Below are positions 10,079 through 62,305 of a DNA stretch of 64,000 nt, piece after piece. Both the position numbers and the translations under genes were made by a program. Under the pieces are notes generated by a model. That model was not told where the DNA came from. It was given only the letters and a program-made list of their open reading frames with translations, and did no database searches. Numbering within the stretch: the stretch's first letter is position 1; every line of letters begins with the position of its first letter. The DNA is from Malacoraja senta (lineage: Eukaryota): NCBI GenBank assembly GCA_038087875.1, contig CM075995.1:9550001-9614000 (forward strand), given 5' to 3'.

Positions 10079-10223
10079 GACTCGCCTTCTTGGCGATGCA
10101 GACGGCGCTGGAGAAAAACCTGCTCTCTTTGAAATGATATTCACACGAGAACCGTTTTTGCAGATTATAAAAGAGTAGAAATTAATGACCGTACGACCGT
10201 CCGGAGAAAGATTCTAGAGGCCC

Positions 10224-14242: not shown

Positions 14243-15250
14243 AGATTAGATTAGATAGCCCTTTATTGTCATTCAGACCGAAGTCTGAACGAAATTGCAA
14301 CAGTCATACATAAAACAACAATAAACACACATTAACATCCACCACAGTGAGTCCACCCAACATCTCCTCACTGTGATGGAGGCAAAAGTCTTAGGTCTGC
14401 AGTCTCTTCCCTCCTCTGCACTGAGGCGATACCCTCCGGGCGATGTTTCCCGCGGCCCGGGGTGGTCGAAGCTGCCGCCCACCAGTCCTGCAGACGCAGC
14501 CGCTGGCCCGCGGCCGAACCCCGGACTCAGGCCACCACCGCCAGAACACCGTCCCAGCCACCCTCACGTGAGTACCGTGCCGTCTTCAGCCTCGGCCTGG
14601 GCTGCCCCGACATGGGCGTCGCTTCTCCCCCGGGCCGGGCCGCCCCGACATGGGCGTCGCTTCTCCCTCCGGCCGGGCTGCCCCGACATGGGCGTCGCTT
14701 CTCCCCCGGGCCGGGCCGCCCCGACTTGGGCGTCGCTTCTTCCCCCGGCCGGGCCGCCCTGACATGGGCGTCGCTTCTCCCTCTGGCCGGGCTGCCCCGA
14801 CATGGGCGTCGCTTCTTCCCCGGGCCAGGCCGCCCCGACTTGGGCGTCGCTTCTCCCTCTGGCCGGGCTGCCCCGACTTGGGCGCTGAACCTCCCCCGGG
14901 CCGGGCCGGCCCAACATGGGCGGTCACGGGAGCACTGTTCCAGCCCTGAGCCGGACCACCCTCACGGGAGTGAGCTCAGGGCGAGTCCTGACGGGCTCTG
15001 CCTCCGGAGCCTCGAGGTCATCAGCTCCATTAGGCCTCAGCGCAGACGGAGGCAGAGAAGGGGAATACGACAAAAAGTCGCATTCCCCCGCAGGGAGAGA
15101 CTGCAAACCCCGTTACAACCCCCCCCCCCCCCCCCCCAAAACACAAACTAAAAACCCAAAACTAGACTAACCAAAACGAAATAAACAACACAAAAAACAC
15201 AAACAAACAGGACTGCCGATGAGCCGCTGCAGCCAGTGCCGCGCCGCCAC
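14243..15250 (-). mobile_element. Non-autonomous retroposon (SINE-like) with GC-rich minisatellite core and (TCTAA)n tail
   Basis: TSD GAGCTT at 14237-14242 and 15251-15256; removing the insert restores FIEL-AFLQEK in the host ORF2. On the minus strand the 3' end reads TGACAATAAAGGGCTA(TCTAA)n. Confidence 0.85.
14595..14925. repeat. GC-rich 38-bp minisatellite, about 8-9 units
   Basis: The unit is approximately GGCCGGGCYGCCCCGACWTGGGCGTCGCTTCTCCCYCS, and CCCCGAC recurs at 14605, 14643, 14681 and 14719. Confidence 0.92.
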
Positions 15251-15666
15251 GAGCTTGCTTTTCTTCAGGAAAAAGATAAGCGCGAGGTGACTCCAAGAAT
15301 AGTGGAATATCTTAATTCAATCAGTGAGAGCACTTTGATTGTTTTTACAGATGGATCTAAAGATCCAGTTAGTGGGAGAGCTGGGTTTGGAGTGTATGTG
15401 GAGCAGCTTGGGTTGAAGATTGGCCGGCGCATTTCTGATGGAAGTTCTGTTCTCACGACTGAATTAATGGCAATTCAATGGGCTCTATGGTGGATTGAGG
15501 AAGCCAGTTTTAGGGAAGTCATTATCTGTTCTGATTCTGCAGCTGCTCTTGAAACTTTAAGAGTAGGGAAATCTAAAGCTCGTCCTGACATTCTAAATGA
15601 AATCTTGAGTGTGTTTTCTAGAATTGGGTTTGCGTGTAACATCACTTTTTGCTGGGTTCCCGGGCA

Positions 15667-16152
15667 CCAGACTGATTCCTGGGATGTCAGGACTCTCATA
15701 TGAAGAAAGACTGGATAGACTTGGCTTATACTCGCTAGAATTTAGGAGATTGAGAGGGGATCTTATAGAAACGTACAAGATTCTTATGGGGTTGGACAGG
15801 CTAGATGCAGGAAGATTGTTCCCGATGTTGGGGAAGTCCAGGACAAGGGGTCACAGCTTAAGGATAAGGGGAAAATCCTTTAAGACCGAGATGAGGAAAA
15901 ACTTTTTCACACAGAGAGTGGTGAATCTCTGGAACTCTCTGCCACAGAGGGTAGTTGAGGCCAGTTCATTGGCTATATTTAAGAGGGAATTAGATGTGGC
16001 CCTTGTGGCTAAAGGGATCAGGGGGTATGGAGAGAAGGCAGGTACGGGATACTGAGTTGGATGATCAGCCATGATCGTATTGAATGGCGGTGCAGGCTCG
16101 AAGGGCCGAATGGCCTACTCCTGCACCTAATTTCTATGTATCTATGTATCTA
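15667..16152 (+). mobile_element. 5'-truncated HER1/CR1 LINE inserted into the Nimb RNase H domain
   Basis: It encodes TRLIPGMSGLSYEERL...GEKAGTGY* and ends in a (TCTATGTA)n tail. It splits the host motif WVPGH|VGVRGNE. Confidence 0.92.
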
Positions 16153-19117: not shown

Positions 19118-20529
19118 TTTACTTCGGAGTCACGTGAGTGACTACGTGAAGAAGCCCGTCCAGCCGCACGTGCGTCATTACGTCAGACGCATTAGTGCAG
19201 GCGGTCGGTTGGAGCAGCAGAGCTCCTCCAGCGGGTAAGTTTAAAATGCCTCTAAGTAAGTGAAAACTTAGTCTTGAGGTCGCTTTCTGAGTCGGTGGTT
19301 GTTTGTGGTCGACTATGCAGAAAGCAAGCAAGGTGAAGGCGAGGCAACCCATGGCGAAAAGTGTAGAGGACCGCGGGAGTGTGGTTACCGAGGGCCCGCC
19401 TAGTTCACTAGCTTTGTCGTAAGCAGAGCTTGCAACTGCAGACTCGTTGCATGGGAGCAGTGTTGCCGTGCTGGTAGGGCGTAAGACCACATTTAAGTCT
19501 GCCAGGCCTATAGACCCAGAGTCGGGCAGGAGGTTTTACCTCCAGAAGAGTCCGTTTCCTCGCGGCTCTCACAATTAGAGCTCCTAATGGAGAGGTGGCT
19601 CGAGAAAGACTCACTCCGGGAGGAGGAGTGAAGTTCTCGCCAGGCTATTGGAGAGCCTGTGCCAGCAGTGCCAGAAATAGGACTGCATAATCGCCCCTTC
19701 ATGGAAGAAGAGGGTGTGCCGGGTCAGAATTATACTGATACTAAGGAAATGGCTGAACATTGCCCAATGGGTGAAGGGCAAAAGGTCTTTGTACTTAATT
19801 TGGCTGCTAAATTTGCAGTCCCCAGAGAAGCAGGCTATGGCAATTAATTATATGCTCTGCCATCAGCTCCAGGAGCTGATTATGGATGATACTGCTAAGA
19901 AATATATGAAACCCCAGTTAACTGTGGGTTTTTGAAAGTGCCGATGGTCAATCAGGTTATATGGGGCCAAATAGTGGTTGCAGTGAGAGCACAAGAATTG
20001 AAGCTCCAGAGGGTGCTCAATTTGTTAGCTACAGGTATCACTGCGTTCGCCAGAACGGTGGAAGAGGGGCAATTGACTGAGGTTCATCAGGACGCTCTGG
20101 GGCTTTTGTGCAGTGCACATTTTGAAATGAACAGCCTTAGAAAGAGTGCCATATGCCCCGCCATTCACCCAAAATTTGCAGAACTCTGCAAACCAAATAA
20201 TGTGCAGTTACCAAATCTATTGTTTGGGGAGGACCTCGCAAAGCGAGTCAAAGAACTGCATGAAGAGGCAAAAACTATGGGCCTCATTAAAGTGCCAACA
20301 ACCAGCAGGATGGGCAAAAGGTTTTTCCCTTATCGACGGGGTGCTGTCACAGGGACTGCCGAAGGGACCAGTCGTTCATTTGCGAACACAAGAATCTGGT
20401 ATCCTGCCACAGGCACAAAGGCTAAGGTGAATTTCCCTACGAGGGGCCGGGGGCAACAAGCTCATTCAGGAAATGTGCAGGTAAGAGACTTTGCTCCTGA
20501 AGGAAATAAATTAAGTGGGAAAGATGTTC

Positions 20530-22430
20530 AAATAGGTGGCAGGTTACACCTGTTTCTTAAAGAATGGCAGGAGATAACATCAGATCCATTTGTTTTGGGC
20601 AGTATAGAGGGGTTTCTAATTGAATTTTACCCTACTGTGTGTCAGCCTACTCAGCATGTCCCACGTCCGAAACTTGTGTTTTCACAAGAAGAGAATATAC
20701 AGATACAGGCAGAGCTTGAGATATTGTGCAAAAAAGGGGTTATTGAGAAGTCGGTTCGTCAATCCCATCAGTTTGTGTCAAGTATTTTTCCTAGGTCTAA
20801 AAAGCATGGGGGTTGTAGAATCATTCTGGACCTGACGAGCCTGAACCCTTTTGTGCAGTATAGACATTTTAAGATGGAAACTTTTTCTACTGCTAAACAA
20901 CTGGTTTCCAAAGGGTGTTTTATGGCAAGCATAGATCTCAAGGATGCTTTTTACTCAGTGTCTGTTCATTGTGATGATAGGTGATATTTGAAATTTTTCT
21001 GGATGAGGCAATTGTGGCAATTCAAAGCACTGACTAATGGGTTAACCTCAGCTCCGAGATTGTTTACCAAATTGTTGAAACCAATTATTGGCTTACTCCG
21101 AACTCAGGGTCATGTGATAATGGCTTATTTGGATGATATTTTTATTGTAGGGAACTCTCGGGAGGGAGCTGAATCATCTGTATCAAGTGTTAAACTCACT
21201 TTTGAGCAGTTGGGGTTCATTATCCATTCAGGTAAATCCAAATTAACACCAGTTAAAGTTATTGATTACTTGGGCTTCACCATTCACTCAGATCACATGT
21301 TAGTGACTTTGCCGATTGATAAGAGGCAGCAGTTAATTGAAGAATATGTTGAAGTTGGCTTGTTGAAGAACAATTACCTTCAATTAGACAGGTGGCAAAG
21401 TTGATTGGCAAGCTGGTGGCTGGTTTTCCAGCAGTGCAGTTTGGGCCTCTGCATTATCAAGAATTACAGCGAGCAAAAGAACAAGCAATGAGAGCACATG
21501 CAGGCCATTTTGACAGGCCTATGAAGTTGCCAACAGAAGCCATTTCTGAGATACAATGGTGGATTATGAATGTTGCAACTAGCTCCAGGAAGATTTTGGT
21601 TGACCCACCTTCTATAGTTTTACAGACTGATGTCAGTGGCCTAGGTTGGGGTGTTACTGATATGGGTTCCAGCTGTGGAGGCAGATGGAATTGTGATGAG
21701 GCATCCATTCTACAATTACAAGGGATCAATTATTTAGAGCTTCTTGGAACATTTTATGGGCTTAAAGCTTATTGTTTTACCAAACGTCAAGTGCATGTGC
21801 AGGTTCAAATTGATAACACTACAGCAGTAGCATATCTGAATCATATGGGTGGAGTCAAGATGAAACCTTGTGATAGGTTGGCTAATCAGATCTGGAGTTG
21901 GTGTATTGACAGAAATATTTGGATTTCAGCAATCCATTTACCTGGTAGATTCAACATAGTCGCAGACACAAGGTCACGACAATATAGAATGGATGTTGAA
22001 TCATGACATATTTGAAAATGTTGCTCGTTTTGGGATACCAGATATCAATTTGTTTGCATCCAGACTTAACCATCAGTTGCCTAAATATGTTTCATGGGAA
22101 CCAGATCCTGGGGCAGCAGCAGTTGATGCGTTCTCGCTGCACTGGGGTGGAATGTTTACATTTTCTGACGAGACAGAATGGAGGAAATATATATATATTT
22201 CCTCCATTCTGTCTCATCAGTCGATGCCTGCAAAAGATCAACAGGACTCCACTTCAGGAATATTGGTGGTACCTGACTGGCCTACTCAGCCAAGGTATGC
22301 TCATGTTTTGGAGATGGCTACTGAGCCTCACATGATTGTTCCCAAAAACAAAAACCTACTGGTGAATCCTGTAACTGGAGATCAGCATCCTTTACATAAT
22401 CGTATTGATCTGTTATTTTTGAAGATTCTA
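20530..22430 (+). pseudogene. DIRS RT / RNase H / methyltransferase-like region
   Basis: RT: GGRLHLF, RIILDL, IDLKDAF, NGLTSAPRLF, YLDD. RNase H: TDVSGLGWG, INYLEL, DNTTAVAY. MT-like: NLFASRLN...VDAF. Confidence 0.9.
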
Positions 22431-23402
22431 AGGAGTCCATACCTGGGGAGAGGACTATCCGAGCGCACCGTGGATGTTATCACTGCGGCCTGGAGGGATA
22501 GTACCCAAAAGCAGTACATCTCTGCGATAAGAAAGTGGGAGGTGTTCTGTTTACAGCAGAATATTTCATATCAAAAATGCATGCATCCCAGATGTGCTAG
22601 AGTTTTTTGTCAACTCTCTATTTCGATCAAAGGTTAAGCTATAGTGCTATCAACACAGCCAGAAGTGCTCTGTCTTCATATTAACCCATGATGTCAGAAT
22701 TACATGCAGTGGGGACACATCCGTTAGTCTCTAGATTCATGAAGGGAGTTTTAATTCCAATCCTCCTAAGCCCAGGTATTCGGTTATCTGGAATGTGAGC
22801 GAAGTTCTAATGCTGCTTCGCCAGTGGGCTCCTGTCACAGTCCTATCTCTAGCCAAACTCACCATGAAGGTGGTCATGCTTATGGCGTTGGTATCAGCCC
22901 AACGTGTGCAGACATTACAGATGCTGTGTCTAGACAGCATGGAGGTATCAAAAGATGCCATCTTTTTTATGTTTATGATCTGCTCAAGCAGAGTAGAATA
23001 GGGGCGACAGGATGTAAAATTATCTTTTCGGCATACCCCAAGGATTCCCGCCTGTGTGTAGTGTCATGTTTGTCCCATTACATTGAGATTACCAGAACTT
23101 TAAGGGGAACAGAGTCAACATTGTTCATTAGTCACAAAAAAACGCACAATAAGGTGTTGGTGCAAACTATCTCAAGGTGGCTAAAGCAGGTTCTGGTAAG
23201 CGCTGGGATTGACACTGATAATTTTAAATCACATTCCACCAGGGCGGCAGCAACTTCAGCGGTCAGGGCGATGGACGTTCCTATAGACCATATCTTTGCG
23301 GCCGCAGGATGGTCCAGTGAACTAATGTTCCAAAGGTTTTATCATAAGCCAATTACAAGGCTGGGGGGTTTTGCTGATTCTGTTTTAAGTTCAGTTATAT
23401 AG
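22420..23402 (+). pseudogene. DIRS tyrosine recombinase, frameshifted
   Basis: Catalytic-motif pattern SAQRV (R), HSTR, AAGW and FQRFY. Confidence 0.9.
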
Positions 23403-30674: not shown

Positions 30675-30680
30675 TTTATT
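30675..30680 (-). promoter_or_regulatory. Candidate polyadenylation signal of the lectin gene
   Basis: AATAAA on the minus strand in non-repetitive sequence ~220 bp past the relic exon stop. Confidence 0.55.
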
Positions 30681-30898: not shown

Positions 30899-31051
30899 TT
30901 AGTTAACTTGGTTCTCCTGTACGCATACGCTAAAGACATCCACCTCACATCAGGTCAGGATTTTCTGAGATCCGGGGATGATAATGTTCACATACTGGCC
31001 ACCAATTCCATGACAAGCGATGTAGATTGTCTGTTCAATTCCTTCGGCTAT
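30899..31051 (-). pseudogene. Relic second half of a second F-type lectin domain, probably now the terminal exon / 3' UTR
   Basis: After acceptor CTCTTTCAG| it reads IAEGIEQTIYIACHGIGGQYVNIIIPGSQKILT*CEVDVFSVCVQENQVN*. There is an in-frame TGA at 30950-30952, and the N-terminal Cys is missing. Confidence 0.8.
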
Positions 31052-37000: not shown

Positions 37001-40000
37001 ATTTACGAAGGGGAAATTTTTTCTGGAATTTTTTGAGGATGTAACTAGGAAAATGGACAAGGGAGGAAAATGAAAATTGGACAATGTAGTGTACCTGGAA
37101 TTTCAGAAAGCCTTTGATAAGGTCCCACATAGGAGATTAGTGGGCAAAATAAGAGCACATTGTATTGCTTGGCAGACAGGAAACAAAATGTAGGGATTAA
37201 CGGGTCCCTTTCAGAATGGCAGGCAGTCACTCGTGGGGGCTGCAGCTATTTACAATATACATTCATGATTTAGATGTTACATGTTACATTAAGGGATTAA
37301 AAGTAACATTAGCAAATTTGCAGATGACACAAAGCTGGGTGGCATTGTGAATTGTGAGGAGGATGCTATGAGGATGCAGGGTGACTTGGACAGGTTGGGT
37401 GAGTGAGCAGGTGCATGGCAGATTTAGTTTGTCGTGGATAAATGTGAGGTTATCCACTTTGGTGGCAAGGACAGGAAGGCAGATGCTGAAGCTCTGAATG
37501 GTGTCAAGTTAGGAAAAATCTGGGTGTCCTTGTACACCAGTCACAGAAAGTAAGCATGCAGGTAGAGCAGGCAGTGAAGAAAACTAATGGCATGTTGGCC
37601 TTCCTAACAAGAGGAGTTGAGTAATGGAGCAAAGATGTCCTTCTGCAGTTGTACAGGGCCCTGGTGAGAACACACCTAGAGTATTGTGTGCAGTTTTGGT
37701 TTGCAAATTTGAGGAAGGAAATTCTTGCTATTGAGGGACTGTAGGTTCACAAGGTTAATACCCGGGATGGCGGGACTGTCATATGTTGAAAGAATGGAGC
37801 AACTGGGCTTGTATACTCTGGAATTTAGAAGGATGAGGGGGAATCTTATTGAAACATATGATTATTAAAGGGTTGGTCGCTCTAGAGGCAGGAAACATGT
37901 TCCCGATGTTGGGGAAGTCCAGAACCAGGGGCCACAGATTAAGAATAAGGGGTAAGTCATTTAGAATGTAGATGAGGAAAAGCTTTTTCATGCAGAGAGT
38001 TACGAATCTGTTGTATTCTCTGACTCAGAAGGCTGTGGAGGCCAATTCTCTGGAAGCTTTCAAGAGAGAGTTAGATAGAGCTCTCAAAGATTGCGGAGTC
38101 AAGGGATATGGGAAGAAGGCAGGAACGGGGGTACTGATTGTGGATGATCAGCCATGATCACAGTGAATGGCGGTGCTGGCTCAGAGGGCCGAATGGCCTA
38201 CTCCTGCACCTATTGTCTATTGAGAGTGAGAACGTATTCCACCGTATATACAATAGGCGAATCAAGAATGACTACTTCCCAACAACCTTGAACACAATAC
38301 AATACGAACCTCAACTATGGATATGATCTATGGATTGTTTTATGTTGCTCTGAGAACATGTAATGGGGTTAGTGATTCACTGATTTTTTGTTTTTATTAT
38401 ATATTTTGTCTGTTATATATTATCCGAGTTGTGTTTACAGACCTGTTACGTTGAGTTTAGTTTATTGTCATGTGTACCGAGATACAGTGAAATGCTGCGT
38501 CCCAACCAGTTAGCAGAATTCCAATCGAGTCATCCACAGTGTACAGATACATGTCAAGGGCATCATGTGAATAATAGAAACATAGAAAATAGGTGCAGGA
38601 GGAGGCCATTTGGCCCTTCGAGCCAGCACCGCCATTCATTGTGATCATGGCTAATCGTCCCCAATCAATAACCCGTACCTGCCTTCTCCCCATAACACTT
38701 GATTCCACCAGCCCCTAGAGCTCTATCTAACTCTCTCTTAAATCCATCCAGTGATTTGGCCTCCACTGCCCTCTGTGGCATGGAATTCCACAAATTCACG
38801 ACTCTCTGGGTGAAAACGTTCTTTATGACCTCAGTCTTAAATGGCCTCCCCTTTAATGTAAGACTGTGGCCCCTGGTTCTGGACTCGCCCAACATTGGGA
38901 ACATTTTACCTGCATCTAGCTTGTCCAGTCCTTTTATAATTTTATATGTTTCTATAAGATTTCCCCTCATCCTTCTAAACTCTAGTGAATACAAGCCTAG
39001 TCTCTTCAATCTTTCCTCATATGACAGTCCCGCCATACCAGGGATCAATCTCATATACCTACGCTGCACTGCCTCATTCACAAGGATGTCCTTCCTCAAA
39101 TTAGGAGACCAAAACTGTACACAATACTCCAGATGTCTTACCAGAGCCCTATAGAACTGCAGAAGAACCTCTCTACTCCTATACTGAAATCCTCTTGTTA
39201 TGAAGGCCAACATTCCATTAGCTTTCTTCACTGCCTTCTGTACCTGCACGCCAACTTTCGGTGACCAGTGTATAAGGACACCCAGGTCTCGCTGTAACTC
39301 CCCCATACCTAGCCTAACCCCATTGAGATAATACCTAACCCCATTGCGATAATAATGCAAGAAAGAGCCAGTAAAGTCCGATCAAAGATAGTTTGAGGGA
39401 TATATAGTAGTTCAGGACTGCTATTTAGTTGTGGTTGTATGTTTCAGTTGCCTGATAACAGCGAGGAAGAAACTCTCCCTTAATCTGTAGGTGTGTGTTT
39501 TCACTCTTCTATACCTTTTCCCCCGATGGGACAGGGGTTATATGGCTGTAAATGAGAATTTAATTGTTCTGTTTGTGGTACATATGGCAATGAAACACTC
39601 TGGACACTTACCTGCTGGAGTCAGGGTCCTTCCAAAGACCTGAACCTCACATAAACTCAGGATTTTTCTACTTCCTTTGAGAAAGATGTTCACATATCGA
39701 CCCCTGAATCCATTGCAGAAGATCCGGTTCCATGCCCCAACTGTAATGATGTATCCACATCTGGATGAAACCGAAACATAAAGTTATCATGAAGGATAAC
39801 ATCAACCAAGTTTCAAGCATGGTGTCAGGAATGTGGGCAGTGACAAACTGCCTCTCTCACCACGAACATAAGATGTTTGTCGCCACAAAAGGCTTTTGGC
39901 ACGGTGGCCATCATCAGTCAGGATAATGAGTATGTAAATCGGGATAGATGGCTCGATTGTATCATGTATTGGCTTTCCGCCCACTGGTTAGTGAACCTTT

Positions 40001-43000
40001 CGTTGTACCTCGGTTCACTTTAAATTAAACAACAAAACAGATGTAAAAGATGTGTGTGAGACTGTACCAATAAATATTGGGTTGAGGTTGAGAAAGTAAG
40101 ATGTCAGCGAGAGGCACGGCAGAGCAGAGAGAAAGCTCCCGGCGGCCACCACAAAGGTGCAGAAGGTGAGGGCTGCGGAGCCGAGAGCTGGTTGGACCGA
40201 GGACAGGCCGTGGAGAGGAGTGACAGGTCGGGTAACGGATGGGTTGCGAAGAGGAGAGGTGGACGGGTCGAGGAAGTACTGCGGAGAGAACATAGAGGGA
40301 ACAATGTGACTTGCAGTGAGATAAGCCCTTTACAAAGGTATTCCCAGAATGCAGGAACTCCTCGCGACCATGAAGGAGACTTACCAGAGACCACCAGCGA
40401 ACATGTGGCTATCATGTGGCGATCATATGGCGAGCACAGAGTCTCCTGCACTCGCCTAAAAAGTTGCCTAAGTGGGACAGGCCCTTGAAAAAATGTCGCG
40501 ACACCTGAGGAAACACCACGCATCCATATGTCATCACATCGCGTCACGTCGCGACTGTTTCGGTGACCTGATACATCACAATGTTGCGGGCAGTCGCTGA
40601 GTGGGACAGGTCCTAAACTGAACCGTGCGTGCAATCACCACAAGACCAGTGGGCAAAGATGAAATGAAGAATTGCCGCGCAATACTCACTCACTGTTGGA
40701 GTTCCCGTTATTTCGCTCCACCGAATCCCCAATGTGGACCTCTGCTTTCCGGATCCAAAACCAGAACACTGGCATTCTGTTGTGGATTGTTACATAAGAT
40801 ATGAAATAGGTTTGTCCCAGATCGACCCTCCACCAGGGGTCAGTACTCATACTTGTTCGGGTACAGTAACTCGGGTCCGGGGAGAAATTGCCGTCAATGG
40901 CTTTGCCGGCAATTCCGTTGAATCGGTAATGCAGGCTGGATTGTGTTGCCGTTCCCCGCAAAGCCAAGTTTTCTGTTTAGTGAGAAAGTAATTCAAGTAT
41001 CAACAAAGGTTCAACCTCACGCCACTGCATCTGTCCCTTGCCCTACCATCTTCTTCCACTGGGAGTACAGCAGTGTCATGTGACCCAACTACTCGATACC
41101 CTTCCCAATGGAGCAAGGCCGCCAAACGGCTTCTTCATTACCAAGGCTACATAACTCACCACTTTATGCAACCATGCACCTGTACTCCCAGATCTCTGTT
41201 TTGCACATCTCACCAAGTGCTCTAATATTTAATGTGTAGGCCCTGCCCTCGTTTGACATAGCAAAGTGCAACACCTCACACTTGTCAGTGTAAATTCCAT
41301 TTTCCATTCCTTGATCCACCTTCTCACATGATCTTAATTTTGCTGTTAATGTATAGTCATAATTGAAAGAGGCCCTTCACCCCAACTCGCCCATTCTGAC
41401 AGATGCCCTATCTAAGCTCATCCTATTTGTCCACATTTGGCATATCTCCCTCTAAATCTTGCCTATCCATGCACACTATCCGTCCATTGCTTTTGAATGT
41501 AGTTATTGTACCTTCTTCAACTACCTCCTCTTGCCAGCTTATTTCATATATACATAGCATCCACTCTCTACGTGAAAAGGTTACCACTCAGGTTCTTAAA
41601 TTATGCCCCTTTCACCTGTAAACCCAGTTCCACAGGTTCGATTCCTCTACTCTGTGTAAAAAGCCTGTACATTCACTGTCTATTATACACAGGAGTTTAA
41701 ATACCTCTCTAAGGTGACCCTCTTCATAGACTCCTGCGTTCCAAGCACCAGAATCCTAGCCTGCCCAAACCCTCTCTTGTAGCTCAGGCTCTCATGGCCT
41801 GGCAGCATCCTTGAAAATCTACTCTGCACTCATTTCAGCATAATGACATTCTTACTGTAGAAGGGTGACCAAAACTGAACAAAATACTTCAAAATACAGA
41901 CTCACCAACTTCTTGTATAAGTGGAACAGAATGTCCTAACTTCTATAATCAAATTGCTAACGGATACGATATGATATTATACGTTTGAGCTTTATTGTTC
42001 CCGGGAGGGATATTAGTTTACCAACAATCATAAAACCAAACAAGATATCTGAAACCTAAAATTAAAGTGAGGAATGGAAAGTCCAGGATTGGGGATCTGC
42101 AAAGATTAGGAAAGGAGGGGGGATCAGTCGACCCCATAACAGAAGGGGGAGGAGTTGTACAGATTGATAGCCACAGGGGGAAAAAGCAAGTCCTGTGGCA
42201 TTCTGTGCTGCATCTTTGTGCATTGAGTCTGTTGCTGAAGGTGCTCCTCAGGTTAACCAGTACATTATAGATGGGGTGAGCTGTATTGTCCAAGATGCTC
42301 TGCAATTTCCCCACCAAGATCACCTCCAGTGAATCCAACTCCACCTCCAGGATGGAGCCAGCCTTCCTGATGAGCTTTTTAATTCTGTTGGTGTCTGCAG
42401 ACTTCGCCCTGCTGACCCAGCACACGACAGGGAAGATGGCACTGGCCGCCACCGTTTGATAGAACATCTGCAGCATCTTACTGAAGACGTTGAAAGAGCT
42501 GAGCCGCCTCAGAAAGTACAGATGGCTCTGTCCCTTCTTATACAGCGCCACAGAGCCCCAAGCCCAATGTACCAACAGCCTTCTTTACCACCATATATAC
42601 CTGTACTACCTATATACCTATATACTTGCCCACCATTCTCCTGTATGTGACCTTATCAATGGTTTTCTGAAAGTCCAGACACACTACTTCTATTGGCTCT
42701 CCTTCATCCATTTTATTTGTAACATCCTTAAACTCCAGATTAGTCAACCAGGATTTCCCCTTCATAAATCCATGCTGACTTGGACAGATTCTGTCACTGC
42801 TTTCCAAATGCGCCGTTATTAATTATCTTTAATAAGTGACTCCAGTATCTTCCCCACCACCGATGTCAGGCTAACTGGTCTATAATTCCCCGTTTCTCTC
42901 TAGCTCCTTTCATGAAACACGGGATAACATTAGCTACCCTCCAATCCACAGGAACTGATCCTGAATCTAAAGAACATTGGAAAATGATCACCAATGCATC

Positions 43001-46000
43001 CATGATTTCTAGAGCCACCTCCTTGAGTACACTGGGATGCAGACCATCATGCCCTGGGGATTTATCAGCCTTCAGTCCCATCAGTCTACCCAATACTATT
43101 TCTCACCTAATGCAAATTTCTTTCAGTTCCTGTCTCCCTAAATCCTCTGATATCTAGTACATCTGGGAGATTGTTTGCGTCTTCATGTGAAGACAGAACC
43201 AAAGTGCCTGTTCAACTCTTCTGCCATTTTCTTGTCCCCATAATAATTTTAACCTGTTTCTGCTTTCAAGGGACCCACATTTGTCTTTTTCTAATCTTTT
43301 TCTCAACATACCGAAAGAAGCTTTTACTAACCTTGTTTATATTCTTGGCCGGCTTCCCCTCGTACTTCATATTTTCACCTCGTATTGCCCTTTGTGTTAC
43401 CTTCTGTTTGAAAGTTTCACAATCCTCTGGCTTCCTGCTATTCTTTGCAATGTTATACACCTTTTCTTTTAATTTTATTCCATCCCTAACTTCCTTTGTC
43501 AGCCACGGTTGCCTCTTACTCCCCTTAGAATCTTTCTTACTCTTTGGAATTAAATGATCCTGCATCTTCTGTATTATGCCCAGAAATTCCTGCCATTGCT
43601 GTTCCACCATCATTCCTGCTAGGATCCTTTTCCTATTCACCTTGGCCAGTTCCTCTCTCATGCCTTCATGGTCCCCTTTGTTCAACTGCAACACTGACTT
43701 CTGATTTAACCTTCTCCCTCTCAAATTGCAGATTAAAAGTCATATTATGGTCACTACCTAGCAGTTCCTTTACCTCGAGTTCCCTTATTAAATCTGATTA
43801 ATTAGACAACACTAAATCAAGAATTGCCTTATCTCTGGTAGGCACCAGTACAAACTGCTGTAAGAATCCATCTCGGACACACTCTACAAACTCCAATTCT
43901 TGAGGTCCAGAACCAAACCTGATTTTCCCAGTCTACCTGCAGAGTGAAATCTCCCATAACCACAGTGGCATTACATTTGTTACATGCCAATTTTAATTCC
44001 TGCTGCAACTTGCACCCTATATCCAGGCTACCGTTTGGGGGCCTGTAGATAACTCCCATATAGAGCTTTCTGTCCCGTTAATTCTGGGTTTTTTCTTAAC
44101 TTTTCCTATACTCTCCCTTTAACTCTATCCTTGTATTTCCAATTTGTCTCACCCCCCCCCCACTGCTGACTATATGCGGGCCAATTGCATCACTCCCTAC
44201 AAGGTGATCATTCATTTTTATTTCTCAGCTCCACCCATACAGCTTCACAGAACAGACCATTAGGAATGTCATCTTGGACGATTGGCATGAGGTTCTCCTT
44301 ACCAATAAACCAACTCTCCTTCCTCTTTTTTTCCCTCACCTCTATCCCGACTGCAGCACCTAGGCCCTGGAACATTACCCTGGCATTCTTGTGCTCCTCT
44401 CAGCCGGGTATCCATAATGGCTGTGACGACCTAGTTACACATACTGATCCACACCCCGAGTTCATCCACATTTCCCTAGGCCTCTCAAACTAAAATAGGT
44501 GCAAGTTAGTCCACACTTCTCCCAACCATGCTCATGCCTATCCTGTCTACAGAAGTTTTCATTGATTTCCAGCCTCTCTCTCATCTTACAACTGCATTGC
44601 TTCATCCCTCTGCCAATCTAGTTTAAACCATCCTGAGTAGCACTTGTAAACCTGCCTGCCAGGATATTGTTTCCCCTTCAGTCCAGCTGCCAACATCCCT
44701 CTTGTACAGGACACCTCTGTCCCAGAAGAGATTCCAATGGACCAAATATCCCGGGCCCCGACACCAATTCCTCAGCCAGATAATCACGTCCTGTCTTTCT
44801 GTTCCTAACCTCATTAGCACGTGGCACCTGGAGGAATCATGAGATTACTATCCTCCAGCTCCTGCTTTTTAACTTTTGCCCAACTCACTGTATTCTATCT
44901 GCAGGACTTCACCCCTTTCATTACCAATGTCATTTATGCCAAATTGTGGATAGTGAGGAAGATATCCTTCCAAAGTGACCACTCACTATATATGTGTCAA
45001 CTGCAAATTTATTTACAATATTTACTGGAGAAATTGGCAGATGGAATGGCAGATTAACGGCGGTTTAATCCAAACAAGTGTGAGATGTTGTACCTTGGGA
45101 GGTCGAATGGAAACAAAGTATACAATTAACGGAAAGAACTAGAATAGCATTAATAAATAGAGGGATCTTGGGGTCCATGTCCATAATCGCCTGAAAGAGA
45201 CAACACAAATAGATAGAGTGGTGAAGAAGGTATATGGTATGTTAGGCTTCACTGGATGGGGCACTGTGTATAAAGAGATAGGAATGTTATAATGCAGCTT
45301 TATATGACTTTGTTTGTGCCAAATTGGGTATACTCCATGTATACTGCACTGGGCGGTGCCAGCAATGGCCACCTTGCCAACAGTCTGTCTGTCCCTTCCT
45401 TCTTTTGTTGTTGGTTTGTATCTGTTAAATGTATGTTTTAGTGTTCTAAAGCTTGTTTTATGTGGTGGGTGGGGGTTTGGGGGAATCTTTTTCTAATCTC
45501 TTACCTCATCGGAGATGCAATTTTTTTTCTGTATCGTATCCCAGTCCGCACTACGGCCTAACATCAAGTAGTGGGCGGCCTTTGCTGGAGACCGACTTCG
45601 GGTGCTTCACCACGGGAAGCCTGCAGACTTACCATCGTGGAGCCACGATCCCTTTGCCTGGGATTGACCTCTGAGCTCAACTGCAGGAGTCTGTGGACTT
45701 TAACATCGTGGTGTTCGCGGGCTCTGGTCAGAGACCGACTTCGGGAGCTCCTAGCCGCAGGAGCTTCGATTTCCGGATGCGGGAGTATCGATCGCTCTGA
45801 CGCAGGAGCTTCGATTGCCCCAACGCAGGAGCTTCGATTGCCGGATGCGGGAGCTTCGATCGCCCCGACGGCCGGTGGTTCAACTGCCCCGACCGTGGGA
45901 GAATAAAGAAGAAGCATATATATATACTTTATTGCCTTCCATCACAGTGAAGAATGTGGGGAATCCTCTGCGATGGATGTTTATGTTAACTTTTATGTCA

Positions 46001-49000
46001 TTGTGTATGCACGCAAAGAATCGTACTGTGCCTAGTCACATGTGACAATACAGTATTCCTATTCCTATTCCTAAATTGTTAATATAATTACAAATAACCG
46101 TGGACCCAGCTCCAACCTCTGCGGCACTCCACTGGTCACAGATTTCCAATTAGCAAATCATCCCTCCACCACAACCCTTTGACACCTTCCTCTGAGCCAA
46201 TGTTGAGTATAATTGGTACGCTCACACTGGATTCCAATATGATCTAACCTCCAGACTAGCCTACTGTACGGGAATTTGTCAAAGGCTTTGATAAAGTCAT
46301 GTAGACACTGCCCTGCCCTCATCAGAGGTGACCTTTTCAAAAAACTGTTAGATTCATGAGACAGAATTTCCCACGCACAAAACCACGCTGACTCTCTCTA
46401 ATCTGTTAGTCCCTATCCAAATGCTGCCAGATGCTGTCCCTCAGAGTCCACTCCAATTAACTGTCCCACTATGACACCAGGCTCACGGACGAAAACTAGA
46501 AGGCAGAGGTTTCAGGCAAGAGGGAAAATGTTTAATAGAAACCTGAGGGGATAATTTTTCACACAGAATGGTTAGTATATGGAGCGAGCTGCCAAAGAAA
46601 GTTGTTGCGGCAGGTGAAATAACAATAATAATAAGAGAGTCAGATAAGAGAGTGGAAGTTAGTGGAGTGGTTATTACCAAGGAGAAGGGAAGCTTGGGAA
46701 GCTGAAAGGGATGAAGGTGGATAAGTCAGCTGGAGTGAATGGATTGCACCATAGGGTTATTAAAGAGGGGTCTTTAGAGATTGTGGAGGCATTTACAGTG
46801 ATATTTCAAGAATCATTAGACTCAGGAGTGGCTCCAGATGATTGGGAAATTGCCAATATTATCCCGCTGCACAAGAAGGGAGAAAAGCAGACTCGTGGGA
46901 ACTATAGGCAGGTTAGCCTGACTTTGGTGGTTGATATGATTTTGGAGTCCGTTATAAAAGATGAGGTGATGGAGTACTTTGAAATTCACGAGAAAATAGG
47001 CTTTTGTGACAAATTTCCTGTAATTCTTTGAAGAATTAAACAGCAGGACACACAAAGCAAATCAGTAGATGTTGTTTACCTAGATTTACAGAAAGCCACA
47101 CGTGAGGCTGCTAAGTAAGATGAGAGCCCACGGTATCAAAGGGCAGACACCAGCATGGATATCAGGTTGGCTGGATGGCAAAAGACAAAGTGTAGCAATA
47201 AAGGGGGCTTTTTCTGGTTGGCTGCCATTGACTGGCGGAGTTCCGCAGGGCTGGGGACGCTGTTCTTCATGTTGTATATTAATGATTTGGATGAGGGGAT
47301 TGAAGGCTTTGTGTCCAAGTGTGCGGATGATACGAAAATAGGCGGAGGGGCAGGTAGTGTAGAGAAAGGAGGGACTCTGCAAAAGGTGTTTATTACAATC
47401 GAACCAGGGCCTCTGGTGCTGTACGGCAGCAGTTCTACCAGCCATGCCACTGTATCTTGCAATGTTACAAAATTTTGAGATTTTAAAAATAAAGTCTGCA
47501 ATTTATCCCATCAGATAAAGCATAAAAAGAAGTTTAATTTGACACATAATTCACTTTCATATCTTCAGTATTAAAGAAGTTATGGCCATTTTCATACTCG
47601 GAAATTAGCATCTTGTTCCCTATTGCTTTTCCATTGACTTAACACGAAAGCTGTGATCGAGGACAGTTAAAAGCCCATAACTTTCTTAAAAATTAAGATA
47701 ACTGAAAGAAATTTTCAGTTATTATAGATTGAAGCATTCTGAAACAAATATGAAACAATCTTACTTAGAAGACATGAAAGTAAAGCATATAATTAGTTAG
47801 TTACTTAATTGTAGCTAATTACAAAATTCAATTACTAGATCTAAACATCTATCAATTTCTTAAGAATAGATTAACATTTTTAAATAGCCTAAGTGTCCAA
47901 ATAACATTCACACAATAATTCACAATATAACATAATTTTTAAATCATATTTTCATGAATTTACAGGCCAAATGGAAGGAATTGAATGTTTAATACCTGTA
48001 AATTAATGGGCATTTAAATCATCTTGTGAGTGAGGATTTTCTGGAACGCGATCTTTTGGAACGTTGATTTGCGGTGAATTTAACCCCGTATTGGCATGAA
48101 AAATACTGCCGTTAATTCGGGGAATAAAATCACCGTGTCGCATGAAAAAATGTGAATTAAAGGCTTCTTAAGAAGCACTTTTATACATTTAAAGAAACCA
48201 CTTTCGTTTACCTGTCCGGTGTGTGAAATCCGTCCCCGTTATCGGCATTGACGCTTCAGGAGCTGCTTTTAAAATTACTCCAGCGCTGACATTGACGATT
48301 TAATAAAAATAAAAAATACACAAAATGCCACTAGGAACGATTCTTCAGCCAACGCTTGTACTCCAACAAAATATTAACCAGGACAAGGGAGGAGAAACCC
48401 GCGTTTTAACCCCGCCCCCCCTTAAAGGCGCCAAAATCGCGCACACGGCCAGTGGCAGAATTACAGCGTGACTGAAGGTAAGTTTTGTAACATACCTACT
48501 GTATCTTCAAAAGCATTTCACCGAGTATGAAATGCTACTGGAAGTCCTGTGGCTGTGTGTTTGCACTGCTCTCTCTGACTTGGATTATCAGGCAATGTAG
48601 GTGAGGGTGTCTCCCTGACTGATGGTGTGAATACACACACCAGAACGGGCTGAGTACCAGTGCTACTCACCATAATGAGGATCAGTGAATATTCCAAACA
48701 CGCAGGTCAATGCGAGCAGGCAAAGCAGAGCGATGCTGTGGGGGAAGAATCAACACGATCAAAATGTGGTGCTGCTGGGTCAGCAATACCTGCAGTCACC
48801 TCCAGTTGGAGACGAGATTCACCAGGATGTTAACTGGGCAGTGGGCTTGAGTTCTAGGGAGAGGTTAGAAGGGTCAGGACTTTATTCTTTGGTGTGTAGG
48901 AGACTGAGGGGTGACCTTGTTGAGGTGTACAATATCATAATGGGCATGGATAAAATAAACTCAGTCATTTCCCAGGGTAGAGCATTCTAACACGAGAGAG

Positions 49001-49356
49001 CATAGGTTTAAGATGAGAAAGGAGAGAATTAAGTGGGACCCCAGGGGCAACTTTTACAGGCGATTCATTACTGACTGCTTGTTCCCACCACATATCCAAA
49101 AGACTTCCTGATGATGGGTTTGTTGATCACTCTAAGTTCCCCAGATCAAGGGATGGAAATGGGAATTAGAGGAGTGGGAGAGGTGCTTGTTAATGGGTAC
49201 ACCAGAAACAAGAAAATATGCAGTACGGGGAAAACAGAGAAGGATCGGTTGGATTACCTTGGGAACAGAGCGAGTTGTTGAGACAAATAATCTTGTTCTA
49301 CTTGATGAGGGCAAGAGTGAACTTGAGAAACGAATGAGAACTCACCACCATTTCAT
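31035..49356 (-). CDS. Secreted F-type lectin (fucolectin-like), spliced model of about 174 aa: exons 49346-49356, 48671-48735, 40690-40972, 39612-39760, probable last coding piece 31035-31051
   Basis: All introns are GT-AG with matching phases (2,1,2,1). Product: MKWCIALLCLLALTCVFGIFTDPHY-ENLALRGTATQSS...AIDGN...CTRT...PWWRVDL...AEVHIG...E-CG...CNGFRGRYVNI...LSLCEVQVFG-RTLTPA(DSRRN*). The last exon is inferred. Confidence 0.85.
31400..31900 (+). mobile_element. Rex1/Babar-like LINE 3' fragment
   Basis: Remnants reading CIAAWYGN and KYRRLKVRTTRYRNSFFPSVIRLL. Confidence 0.7.
32815..35651 (+). mobile_element. HER1/CR1 LINE with near-complete decayed ORF2
   Basis: Motifs GITEMW, YRPPN, MGDFN, SPGPDG, NYRPVSLTS, GVPQGS, FADNTK and RPHLEYC, ending in a TATTGTCTATT tail. 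Confidence 0.92.
36925..38221 (+). mobile_element. HER1/CR1 LINE 3' part with internal deletions
   Basis: Collinear with 34200-35650 and has the same 3' UTR and tail. Confidence 0.88.
38573..39355 (-). mobile_element. 5'-truncated HER1/CR1 LINE
   Basis: ORF 38665-39360 is the RT C-terminus ending GEKAGTGY, with a TAGAAACA tail. Confidence 0.9.
39612..39760 (-). CDS. F-type lectin exon 4 (second part of the domain)
   Basis: Acceptor TTTCGGTTTCATCCAG| and donor G|GTAAGT. It encodes CGYIITVGAWNRIFCNGFRGRYVNIFLKGSRKILSLCEVQVFGRTLTPA. Confidence 0.92.
40338..40615. mobile_element. Harbinger-like element remnants (two right-TIR-like ends)
   Basis: 40338-40485 is collinear with 29296-29437. A second end GAGTGGGACAGGTCC lies near 40600-40613. 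Confidence 0.65.
40690..40972 (-). CDS. F-type lectin exon 3 (first part of the F-type lectin domain)
   Basis: Acceptor CTTTCTCACTAAACAG| and donor GA|GTGAGT. Motifs NLALRGTATQSS, AIDGN, PWWRVDL and AEVHIGDS. Confidence 0.93.
41965..42550 (-). mobile_element. Rex1/Babar LINE 3' fragment
   Basis: KKGQSHLYFLRRLSSFNV...MFYQTV...CSTECHRTCFFP. Confidence 0.85.
42605..44060 (-). mobile_element. HER1/CR1 ORF2 fragment (APE to RT)
   Basis: YRPPN, MGDF, KSPGHDG and QHGFMKGKS. Confidence 0.88.
45350..46072 (+). mobile_element. Non-autonomous retroposon related to the 14243-15250 element, with a different internal repeat
   Basis: Same layout: GC-rich start, T-rich and G-run segments, GC-rich repeats (GCAGGAGCTTCGAT-like x3-4), TGCCTTCCATCACAGTGA, then TGACAATA plus an (ATTCCT)n tail. 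Confidence 0.7.
46680..47385 (+). mobile_element. CR1 RT fragment
   Basis: KVDKSAG, NYRQVSLT, GVPQG and CADDTKIGG. Confidence 0.85.
47395..47453 (-). mobile_element. tRNA-derived SINE head remnant
   Basis: The minus strand reads ACAGTGGCATGGCTGGTAGAA (A-box-like) ... CCCTGGTTCGAT (B-box-like). Confidence 0.55.
47458..48498. mobile_element. Non-autonomous hAT-like DNA transposon in lectin intron 2
   Basis: Imperfect TIRs (ATGTTACAAAA / TTTTGTAACAT) and an 8-bp TSD CTGTATCT at 47450-47457 and 48499-48506. Confidence 0.8.
48671..48735 (-). CDS. F-type lectin exon 2 (signal peptide)
   Basis: Acceptor TTCTTCCCCCACAG| and donor G|GTGAGT. It encodes hydrophobic IALLCLLALTCVFG-IFTDPHY, and phase 1 joins to E-NLALRG. 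Confidence 0.85.
49346..49356 (-). CDS. F-type lectin coding exon 1 (ATG AAA TGG TG)
   Basis: ACG-ATG context and donor TG|GTGAGT. Phase 2 matches the next exon and gives MKWC at the start of the signal peptide. Confidence 0.75.
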
Positions 49357-49515
49357 CGTCCTGGGCTTCGGAGTTCAATAGCAGTGGATCGTTTCACGGA
49401 CACATCTACATTTTCAAGGAACAGCACCTCAGCTTAAAAAGGCACCGGATCTGAATTGAGTCCAAATTGCTAATAACGTTTGCTGACGTTAAAGTAGACT
49501 GGGAATGTTGGGACT

Positions 49516-49716
49516 TTGTATGATAATTTGCTGAACACATTCATCACAATGCCCCTTAAAGTCAATAAGGCTGTTACAGGATGTCTCAGAACATGAAATT
49601 ATCCTCACTTGTATGGGGCTTGTATGATAATTTGCTGAACATATTCATCACAATGCCCATTAAAGTCAACAAGGCTGTTACAGGATGTCTCAGAACCTGA
49701 AATTATCGCCACGTAT
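49516..49716. repeat. 104-bp tandem duplication upstream of lectin exon 1
   Basis: TTGTATGATAATTTGCTGAAC...GAAATTATC begins at both 49516 and 49620. Confidence 0.92.
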
Positions 49717-49809
49717 GCTTCACATTATTGAAATTGAAATATAGAGAACGACAGCAGCAAATACATATCTGTTCTCATGATGTGGCTTTCCGTTCCTAGA
49801 CCCATGATC

Positions 49810-50200
49810 ACAATTGTCAATGGACCCATCATCAGCATTTTCGACAGGCCCCGTGTTCCCCATTGTAAACAGACCCGTGTTCACCAATGTCAATGGACCC
49901 GTGTTCACCATTGTCAATGGACCTATGTTCACCATTGTCAATGGACCTATGTTCACCATTGTCAATGGACCTATGTTCACCAATGTCAATGGGCCTATGT
50001 TCACCAATGTCAATGGGCCTATGTTCACCAATGTCAATGGACCTATGTTCACCATTGTCAATGGACCAATGTTCACCATTGTTAATGCACCTATGTTCAC
50101 CATTGTTAATGGACCTATGTTCACCATTGTCAGTGGATCTGTGTTCACCATTGTCAATGGACCCATGTTGACCATCATCAATGGATCCATGTTTGCCATT
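49810..50200. repeat. 24-bp minisatellite, about 16 units
   Basis: Unit CACCATTGTCAATGGACCTATGTT, degenerating at both edges. Confidence 0.95.
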
Positions 50201-60031: not shown

Positions 60032-62305
60032 AGTCCAGTCCAGTCTTACAAACTGATGTTAGTGTCTTGGGATGGGGAGCCACTAATACCAATTCTAGCT
60101 GCGGCGGCAGATGGAATGTGCATGAGGCATTAATTCTTCAGGCGCATGGTATTAATTATTTAGAGTTGCTCGGAGCATTCTATGGCTTAAAGGTGTATTG
60201 TTCTACTATGCATGATTTACATGTTCAGCTCCAGATTGATAACACTAGAGCAGTTGCATATGTCAATCACATGGGGGTAATCAAGTCCGTATCATGTGAT
60301 AAGCAGGTTAACATTATTTGGCATTGGTGTATTGCAAGAAACATCTGGATTTCAGCTATCTACTTACCAGGTAGATATAACATGGTGGCGGACACCAGGT
60401 CACGAAAACACAGAGTAGATGTTGAATCCGGAAATATTTAATGATGTTGTCGCCCGGTATGGTTTGCCAGATATCGATTTGTTTGCATCCAGATTAAATC
60501 ACCAGTTACCAAAGTATGTTTCATGGGAGCCAGACCCAGGGGCTGTAGAGGTAGATGCATTCTCGCTACACTGGGGTGGAATGTTCTTTTATGCTTTTCC
60601 CCCATTTTGTCTCATCAGTCGGTGATTGAGATTGAGATTAAGATTGAGCAGGACTCCGCCTCAGGCATTTTGGTAGTTCCCGACTGGCCTACACAACCAT
60701 GGTTCCCACTTGTTCTGAGACTAATCACACAGCCTTTCATGGTTGTCCCCAAATGCAGCAACCTGCTGCTTCACCCTGTGACAGGGGAGAGTCATCCTTT
60801 ACATGATCGTATTAATCTCTTGATTTGCAGATTCTGACAAGACCGTTCCTGGGGCTCGGACTATCAGATTGTACGGTGGATGTAATTACTGCGGCCTGGA
60901 GGGATAGTACTAAGAAACAATACGTCTCTCATATCAAGAAATGGGAGATGTTCTGCTTGCAGTCAAACATATCTTATCACACTGCAAGCATACCTGATGT
61001 GTTGGAGTTCCTTGCCACTTTATATTTTGATGAGCGACTGAGCTATAGTGCCATCAATAGTGCCAGGAGTGCCTTATCGTACTATCTATGGCAGGGTTCG
61101 GGACAACACTCTGTTGGGTCTCATCCACTAGTATCCCGGTTCATGAAGGGTATTTTTAACTGTAATCCTCTTAAGCCTAGGTATACGGAGATCTGGGATG
61201 TGAGTGTAGTTCTCACACTACTTCGTCAATGGGCTCCAAATACATCTCTGTCTTTGCAAAGACTCACTCTTAAAGTAGTCATGCTCATGGCGCTTGTTTC
61301 AGCGCAACGTGTCCATACGTTGCAAAAGCTACGACTGGACAGCAGGGTTTCTTTTGTAAATAACTACATTTTATGTTTATGATTTAATCAAGCAGAGCAG
61401 GCCAGGGACGTCAGGGATTAAACTGAGTTTTATGGCATATCCCATAGACCTACGGCTATGTGTAGTTACGCACCTGCTGCTGTATATCAAGATCACCAAG
61501 AGCCTTAGAGGCTCTGAAATTACGATGTACATCAGTCACAAAAAACCTCATAAGAAGGTGTCGGTACAGATCATTTCTAGGTGGATGAAACAAGTTTTGG
61601 GTTGTGCCGCGGCGGACACTGATGTTTTTAAATCTCACTCCACCAGGACGGCATCAACATCGGCAGCGGGGGCACTGGACGTCCCTTTAGACCAAATCCT
61701 CGGGGCCGCAGGATGGTCCAATGAAGGGACATTTCAATGGTTTTATAATAAACCTGTTCTCACGCCGGGAGTATTTGTCCATTCTATTTTAAGTTCTGTT
61801 TTATAGCTTCCCCCTGAGAGAGAGGGGTCATTATTGTTTCTTTTGTTTATTAAAGCATTAACATGTATAAGTTTGAATTATGTTTGAATGCATTATTTAT
61901 TCATCCTGTGTCAACTGAGGCAGTGTGTCATATGGACTTGTATCCACGGCATGAAATCACAGAGCATTGAAATCTTCACGGAATCACACGTGACTCCGAT
62001 GTAAAATAGTAAGATTAAACGAGAACTTACCAGTTTGAAGTTTGATCTTTATTTTATGAGGAGTTACGATGAGCGATTACGTGCCCACCGCTCCCAACCC
62101 TCACATCACAAAGGTCATCTGGTAGTTATAATCTTTTGAGTCTTACTATGTTACTTCGACTGTCGTTACCTGTGATTTCACACCACTGCTTTGAAGATTG
62201 ACGCGAGTGCAGACTGGCGGGGCTTCTTCACGTAATCGCTCATCGTACCTCCTCATAAAATAAAGATCAAACTTCAAACTGGTAAGTTCTCGTTTAATCT
62301 TACTA
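60032..62305 (+). mobile_element. DIRS right arm (RNase H, MT, YR, ICR, right terminus)
   Basis: TDVSVLGWG, INYLEL, DLFAS...YAFPPF, SAQRV, HSTR and AAGW. 62007-62083 is inverted to 62229-62305 (77 bp). Confidence 0.92.

Follow-up and report, generated by a model that had tools for sequence, protein, structure and literature searches.

A predicted F-type lectin gene in four exons

The window analysed here, a stretch of 64,000 nucleotides (nt) from Malacoraja senta (contig CM075995.1, positions 9,550,001 to 9,614,000), carries on its minus strand four short exons that are predicted to encode a secreted F-type lectin with an unusual, aromatic-rich binding loop. Each exon is bounded by AG and GT, and reading of the sequence and its translation joins them into 169 open codons, in agreement with a preliminary description of the locus, which had proposed that the four splice in frame. 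The same description took the exons to give a signal peptide and one complete F-type lectin domain. As a gene they are incomplete: their 508 nt amount to 169 codons plus one base, a stop codon is absent, and exon 4 closes on a phase-1 GT donor. The features of this part of the locus are listed below; the splicing of the four exons is a prediction.

49346..49356, minus strand: predicted first coding exon, 11 nt, with the ATG and a phase-2 GTGAGT donor
48671..48735, minus strand: exon 2, 65 nt, with the hydrophobic core of the signal peptide and a short spacer
40690..40972, minus strand: exon 3, 283 nt, first half of the F-type domain, with AIDGN (residues 50-54), Cys62, a shortened complementarity-determining region 2 (CDR2), R64, R91 and an aromatic CDR4 loop (92-98)
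40755..40775, minus strand: loop codons 92-98 (M-P-V-F-W-F-W), in place of the usual x-D-C-C-x-x-R
40688..40693, minus strand: competing GTGAGT donor in exon 3, 4 nt upstream of the in-frame donor, the use of which would shift the frame
39612..39760, minus strand: exon 4, 149 nt, second half of the domain, with Cys121, 135 and 157, GRYVN, LCEV and a phase-1 CAG/GTAAGT donor, without a stop

Exon 1, at three codons too short for a protein homology check, is the closest of five candidates running from an ATG to a phase-2 donor within ~15 kb. The signal peptide was judged from hydropathy, which reaches 3.3 over nine residues in the N-terminal core of exon 2, and by the -3/-1 rule it is probably cleaved after Gly18. 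As to the two donors of exon 3, the downstream one appears to be homologous to that of related genes, the skate models P0220 and P0237 ending where its read-through would stop. Upstream of the predicted ATG, at a distance of 160-850 nt, lie a 24-base-pair (bp) unit repeated 16.7 times (49799-50200) and a 104-bp duplication (49516-49707).

Exon 3 scores above the cut-offs of both PF22633 and PF00754, and aligns with striped bass FBP32 (PDB 3CQO; E = 3e-36) and with eel agglutinin (PDB 1K12; E = 8e-13); by its sequence, the predicted protein belongs to the F-type lectin domain family. To place its residues, we used 532 distinct near-complete domains in 155 proteins, drawn from 167 proteins (20 hits of 47 candidates, and the best 150 of 3027); counts of domain features are alignment-based throughout, and some rows may be misaligned. 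Cys62, 121, 135 and 157 occupy columns that are Cys in 70-83% of these domains, and AIDGN at residues 50-54 fits the calcium motif h2DGx, so the structural cysteines and calcium segment are as intact as first described. The equivalent of Ser49 is Tyr, a replacement found among the substitutions listed in the available part of an F-type lectin review. An N-F-S glycosylation sequon, followed by Pro, includes the Asn of AIDGN (region of residues 54-56 of exon 3, approximately 40809-40817, minus strand). Folded alone, the 93 residues of exon 3 gave a predicted local distance difference test score of 70 and a top match to 1K12 at E = 0.12, with none at E ≤ 0.001; this is a half-domain model and uninformative on the loop.

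Two sequencing runs of one study (X1 and X2, of which X1 may be the source sample) cover the stretch, and both are genomic because their contigs pass through introns. An X1 contig at 40464-41079 (depth 31.6) shows no difference over exon 3, an exact match that speaks against assembly error as the source of the motif, and another X1 contig spans exon 2, likewise without differences. In exon 4, both runs differ from the assembly at position 39616, a third codon position, and the difference is synonymous; the contigs over exon 4 and intron 3 carry three differences each, two of which were located. Around exon 1 and its flanks (49202-49480), both runs contain contigs that are ~94% alike, one of them at a depth of 116.7 against a single-copy depth of ~30 (~4x), and exons 2 and 3 have single-copy depth at 93% likeness. 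The depth excess at exon 1 could reflect several paralogues in which the first exons are conserved and the lectin exons have diverged, or else a low-copy repeat.

The binding face and its family background

The fucose-binding motif of the family, His...Arg-x-Asp/Glu-x4-Arg/Lys, is replaced in the predicted protein by R64-X26-R91-M-P-V-F-W-F-W, with 26 residues between R64 and R91; both the spacing and the loop are as the preliminary description had read them. In the alignment to eel agglutinin, R64 takes the place of His52, R91 of Arg79, P93 of Asp81, V94-F95 of Cys82-Cys83 and W98 of Arg86, all eel residues that contact or support fucose according to the portions of the literature at hand (PMC12221842, PMC5712786). 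The spacing is given as X24 in the review text available, though the review's own residue numbers yield 26. CDR2 departs as well: seven residues separate Asn54 from Cys62, where eel agglutinin, like 41 of 43 chondrichthyan domains, has nine, and the aromatic pair that lines the fucose methyl pocket in the eel protein (Phe45/Tyr46) is missing.

Across the survey, the H-R-R/K triad is kept in 285 of the 532 domains. Both His and the last basic residue are lost in 96, the vicinal cysteine pair (CC) is absent from 154, and His, the last Arg, CC and Asp are all lost together in 13. At loop positions 92-98 the window domain has four aromatic residues, against at most two in any of the 532. For a closer background, ten chondrichthyan proteins gave 55 domain hits, from which 43 near-complete domains were kept and 12 partial ones dropped; the skate rows among them are predicted models, partly tandem repeats, and are not independent. 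Arg stands in place of His in 17 of 25 skate domains, His is present in two, the canonical triad in one, and CC is kept in 23. The R-R-W triad of the window domain recurs in 3 of the 25 (Rhinoraja, Amblyraja and Leucoraja models), and one Narcine domain has H-R-W. The aromatic fraction of the window domain is 0.139, compared with 0.042-0.110 in the 43 chondrichthyan domains.

Non-canonical pockets are thus common in the F-type family and the norm in the skate domains examined, and since two of the four residue changes singled out in the preliminary description are common to annotated skate proteins, much of the "rewrite" of the site is unremarkable. The motif itself is real; the surprise attached to it was overstated, given His-to-Arg in 17 of 25 skate domains, R-R-W in three genera, and a loss of triad and CC, together with non-fucose ligands, that had already been reviewed. 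What is particular to the window gene is the four-aromatic loop, the reduced length of CDR2, and a core with 28 of 29 residues kept despite an end branch longer than any other in the tree. We found no publication on skate F-type motifs in the open-access literature; subscription papers lie mostly outside that coverage.

Several further observations were made on the chondrichthyan models. Among the domains of the annotated skate proteins (P0045, P0098, P0102, P0171, P0200, P0220 and P0237), nearly all of which lack the fucose triad, the commonest form is R-R-Q, with eight domains. The sawshark protein P0169 keeps the fucose triad in 10 of its 11 repeats. The Leucoraja model P0098 has reverse-transcriptase fragments of a long interspersed nuclear element between its lectin halves and is probably a chimeric annotation.

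The loop differs from chondrichthyan loops by ~12 nucleotide changes in 18; for 95 other six-codon windows the mean is ~4 and the highest value 9. Against this background, the loop is not accounted for by general decay. A compensated frameshift was considered as the origin: read in the shifted frame, the loop gives C-Q-C-S-G, and it took first place among 106 windows. This was rejected, as 2565 of 7991 divergence-matched random loops and 28 of 64 synonymous recodings fit equally well. A copy of DNA from elsewhere in the window is likewise unsupported, the best other match having 6 mismatches in 21.

Constraint on the domain and a decayed exon downstream

We placed the window domain in a tree of 40 rows, leaving out 8 of the 11 Pristiophorus repeats and one chimeric Leucoraja model and adding five rows from bony fish. 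Its end branch is 1.74 against a median of 0.36, the longest of the 40, and it falls in no supported clade, the bootstrap being not fully settled. The free tree does not group it with the skate R-R-W clade, and forced grouping is not rejected (p value of 0.264 in the approximately unbiased test), the branch being long; the triad in the window and in the skates may reflect either shared descent or convergence.

Despite this branch length, the domain is unchanged at 28 of 29 positions on which at least 80% of homologues agree, against a median of 26 among the homologues; the sole loss is the loop Asp. Of moderately conserved sites it keeps 19 of 32, of variable sites 15 of 67, and of sites conserved in batoids 48 of 62. 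A simulation with an assumed rate of one indel for every 12 substitutions puts the chance that a dead gene is still wholly intact at 52% for 0.5% divergence, 28% for 1%, 7% for 2% and 0.2% for 5%. Long decay of the gene is excluded, and the suggestion that the domain was remodelled under constraint rather than decaying over a long time is borne out by the core residues and by the rarity of an intact look at 5% neutral divergence. Among the matches listed, protein searches brought up no close relative from which a ratio of nonsynonymous to synonymous substitution rates might be estimated; one of these searches for a close orthologue returned no candidate, and a search of the Atlas gave family-level matches alone.

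A profile search with 534 homologous domains over the six frames of the window returned three lectin pieces, namely exons 3 and 4 and another exon of the second-half type (match near 31036-30911, independent E-value 1.4e-11). It found no further first-half lectin exon in the six frames, including the 39 kb downstream. Two features lie at this downstream site.

30899..31051, minus strand: decayed second-half exon of lectin domain 2, with an acceptor at 31051 and its own stop at 30901-30899
30675..30680, minus strand: candidate AATAAA poly(A) signal, ~220 nt past the stop of the decayed exon

The decayed exon has a 5' frame lesion, its first Cys is gone, and it holds an in-frame TGA at 30952-30950; entered in its normal phase it stops at once, and entered from exon 4 it adds five residues before a stop at 31037-31035. 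It is probably the present terminal exon. The stretch from 39612 to 30000 has 10 AATAAA/ATTAAA hexamers, so the AATAAA is weak when taken alone, and nine acceptor-like sites between 39572 and 29500 have higher pyrimidine counts than the acceptor of the decayed exon; read-through into the intron beyond exon 4 would add a tail of 25 residues. The phase-1 end of exon 4 sits where the two-domain Narcine protein P0008 has its inter-domain linker. Taken together, the arrangement suggests a former tandem lectin reduced to one domain, with a product of ~174 residues. The preliminary description stands for the exons and the motif, and had overlooked the open 3' end, the decayed downstream exon, the competing donor in exon 3 and the two-residue deletion in CDR2.

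Elsewhere in the window, a Pfam scan of 76 of the 213 open stretches of at least 75 residues found no host-gene family, only families of mobile-element type. Matches to reverse transcriptase and tyrosine recombinase (PF00078 and PF00589; PF13495 below cut-off in the second region) lie at 19899-23399 and 60816-61379, both on the plus strand, a combination that we take to be the make-up of a DIRS-type retrotransposon. A fairly intact element without long terminal repeats occupies 10218-15700 (plus strand), with a 405-residue open stretch lacking a Pfam match, an 836-residue stretch with endonuclease and reverse transcriptase, and an RNase H piece; a GC-rich 38-bp unit is repeated 8.6 times at 14594-14922, within this region.

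Proposed function, rival readings and known systems

Our favoured reading, held with moderate confidence, is that the gene is live and encodes a secreted binder of something other than fucose, most plausibly an anionic, partly hydrophobic surface; this ligand is favoured because of the residue types in the loop and the precedent of the factor Va C2 domain. The ancestral gene would have been a multi-domain member of the tandem F-type lectin family, in which domain 2 lost its first-half exon while its second-half exon decayed into a short tail and 3' untranslated region, leaving a secreted single-domain protein of ~174 residues, ~17-18 kDa when mature. Purifying selection would hold the beta-barrel, two disulfides and calcium site, and the loops of the binding face would evolve fast. 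Canonical fucose binding is presumably lost, with His, the last Arg, the CC contact and the CDR2 methyl pocket all gone, and the two arginines beside an exposed F-W-F-W loop may bind microbial membrane lipid, lipopolysaccharide (LPS), or a sulfated or acidic glycan. In soluble form, the protein might then serve as a recognition molecule in mucus, plasma or reproductive fluid.

Several results weigh against this proposal. The net charge of the domain, +6, lies inside the family range of -9 to +12, and the loop could have arisen in one local replacement event, with no new ligand being selected for. An X2 contig at 40460-40956 (depth 3) carries one substitution and one gap, the positions of which are not listed; the competing donor in exon 3 is able to shift the frame; and no relative above ~53% identity over exon 3 turned up in protein searches (20 hits of 47 candidates; best 150 of 3027; best 120 of 1751, a set headed by multi-domain proteins, which may conceal shark or ray proteins with a single domain). 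Of genes dead for 1% and 2% divergence, moreover, 28% and 7% would be expected to show no damage. The unplaced gap, the competing donor and the missing close relative, together with a domain 2 that is already broken and the 52% and 28% chance of an intact look after neutral divergence of 0.5% and 1%, also speak for a recently dead or relaxed paralogue, unexpressed or dispensable, which lost domain 2 and whose loop is a relic or a one-off replacement. We regard this as rather unlikely: both frame or stop lesions fall within a ~120-nt portion of the decayed exon, and exons 1-4, with 508 nt, have none (p of ~0.04 from target size, calculated by hand); the domain retains 28 of 29 core residues, and the sole located exonic difference in the genomic runs is synonymous.

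The perfect phase-1 donor that closes exon 4 could instead mean that the four exons begin a longer tandem lectin, comparable to skate proteins of 3-10 domains, in which the odd domain is a non-binding or accessory module and the rest lies outside the window or was dropped from the assembly. All ten chondrichthyan homologues examined are multi-domain and mix canonical with non-canonical domains, in keeping with such a gene, though multi-domain proteins also come out on top in these searches. Downstream, however, the window shows no first-half exon over 39 kb, the next lectin exon is of a terminal type (own stop and AATAAA) and broken, and the window has no N gaps, and we consider a longer tandem improbable. 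We attach a similarly low probability to an ordinary sugar binder of shifted specificity, in which R64 and R91 would hold fucose, galactose or an N-acetylhexosamine and the aromatics stack on the ring. R91 is kept, Arg can substitute for His as a hydrogen-bond donor, the fucose-binding C-domain of striped bass FBP32 has Phe in place of the CC bridge, and F-type lectins for N-acetylglucosamine/N-acetylgalactosamine or galactose are known; against this, the salt-bridge Asp, the last Arg, and the length and aromatics of the CDR2 methyl pocket are lost together, and the loss of His, last Arg, CC and Asp is shared by just 13 of 532 domains. A broader and highly speculative scenario, to which we give little credence, would have batoid F-type lectins leave fucose and the window gene found a young, multi-copy subfamily of single-domain proteins in which lectin exons outpace first exons in divergence, the basic-aromatic loop having converged on membrane binding of the factor C2 kind to yield a lipid or LPS binder.

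Were the live non-fucose binder that we favour expressed, it would offer a natural test of the shift of the F-type fold from fucose to another ligand, a shift that the available review text infers from factor V C2 without giving an intermediate. Taken alone, the gene is a single divergent paralogue within a family where such divergence is familiar; its aromatic loop, its fast evolution around an intact core and the probable loss of a domain are reasonable grounds for taking it to the bench. Because the annotated skate domains mostly lack the triad, "fucolectin-like" labels in rays and skates should not imply fucose binding.

Among known systems, the predicted protein resembles eel agglutinin AAA (1K12) and FBP32 (3CQO) in family, presumably in fold, and in calcium motif, the Cys positions of two disulfides and the 26-residue spacing. 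Relative to the eel protein, it has Arg for His52, Pro for Asp81, Val-Phe for Cys82-Cys83 and Trp for Arg86, and its CDR2 is two residues shorter and without Phe45/Tyr46. The highest domain identity, up to 50%, is to tandem skate and ray proteins (Leucoraja P0102, Amblyraja P0200, Rhinoraja P0171, Narcine P0008 and P0040), which also have a similar phase-1 linker end; unlike the window domain, these keep CC and a nine-residue CDR2 and are multi-domain, and it is not clearly orthologous to them. These nearest homologues, at just ~50% identity, and a likeness of the window's repeats point to a probable batoid source. An F-type fragment is reported from catshark skin mucus (PMC10707392). Non-canonical F-type domains are already in print in the papers as far as available, including Drosophila CG9095 and oyster bindin isoforms without the triad, as is Phe in place of CC (striped bass FBP32 and viral F-type domains), and bryohealin and ranaspumin-4 bind other sugars (PMC5712786). 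In CG9095, the oyster bindins, bryohealin and ranaspumin-4 the fold is kept and the triad is replaced or the ligand different, as would hold for the window protein; they belong to other lineages with other replacements, and the available portions of their descriptions report no four-aromatic CDR4 loop. The factor Va C2 domain has an F-type fold, no basic triad, a hydrophobic pocket and a phospholipid ligand, and discoidin (F5-8 type C) domains such as this share 2-14% identity with F-type lectins, both points as given in the part of the review at hand (PMC5712786). By analogy, factor Va C2 may serve as a model for the mode of action of the window protein, which by sequence is an F-type lectin.

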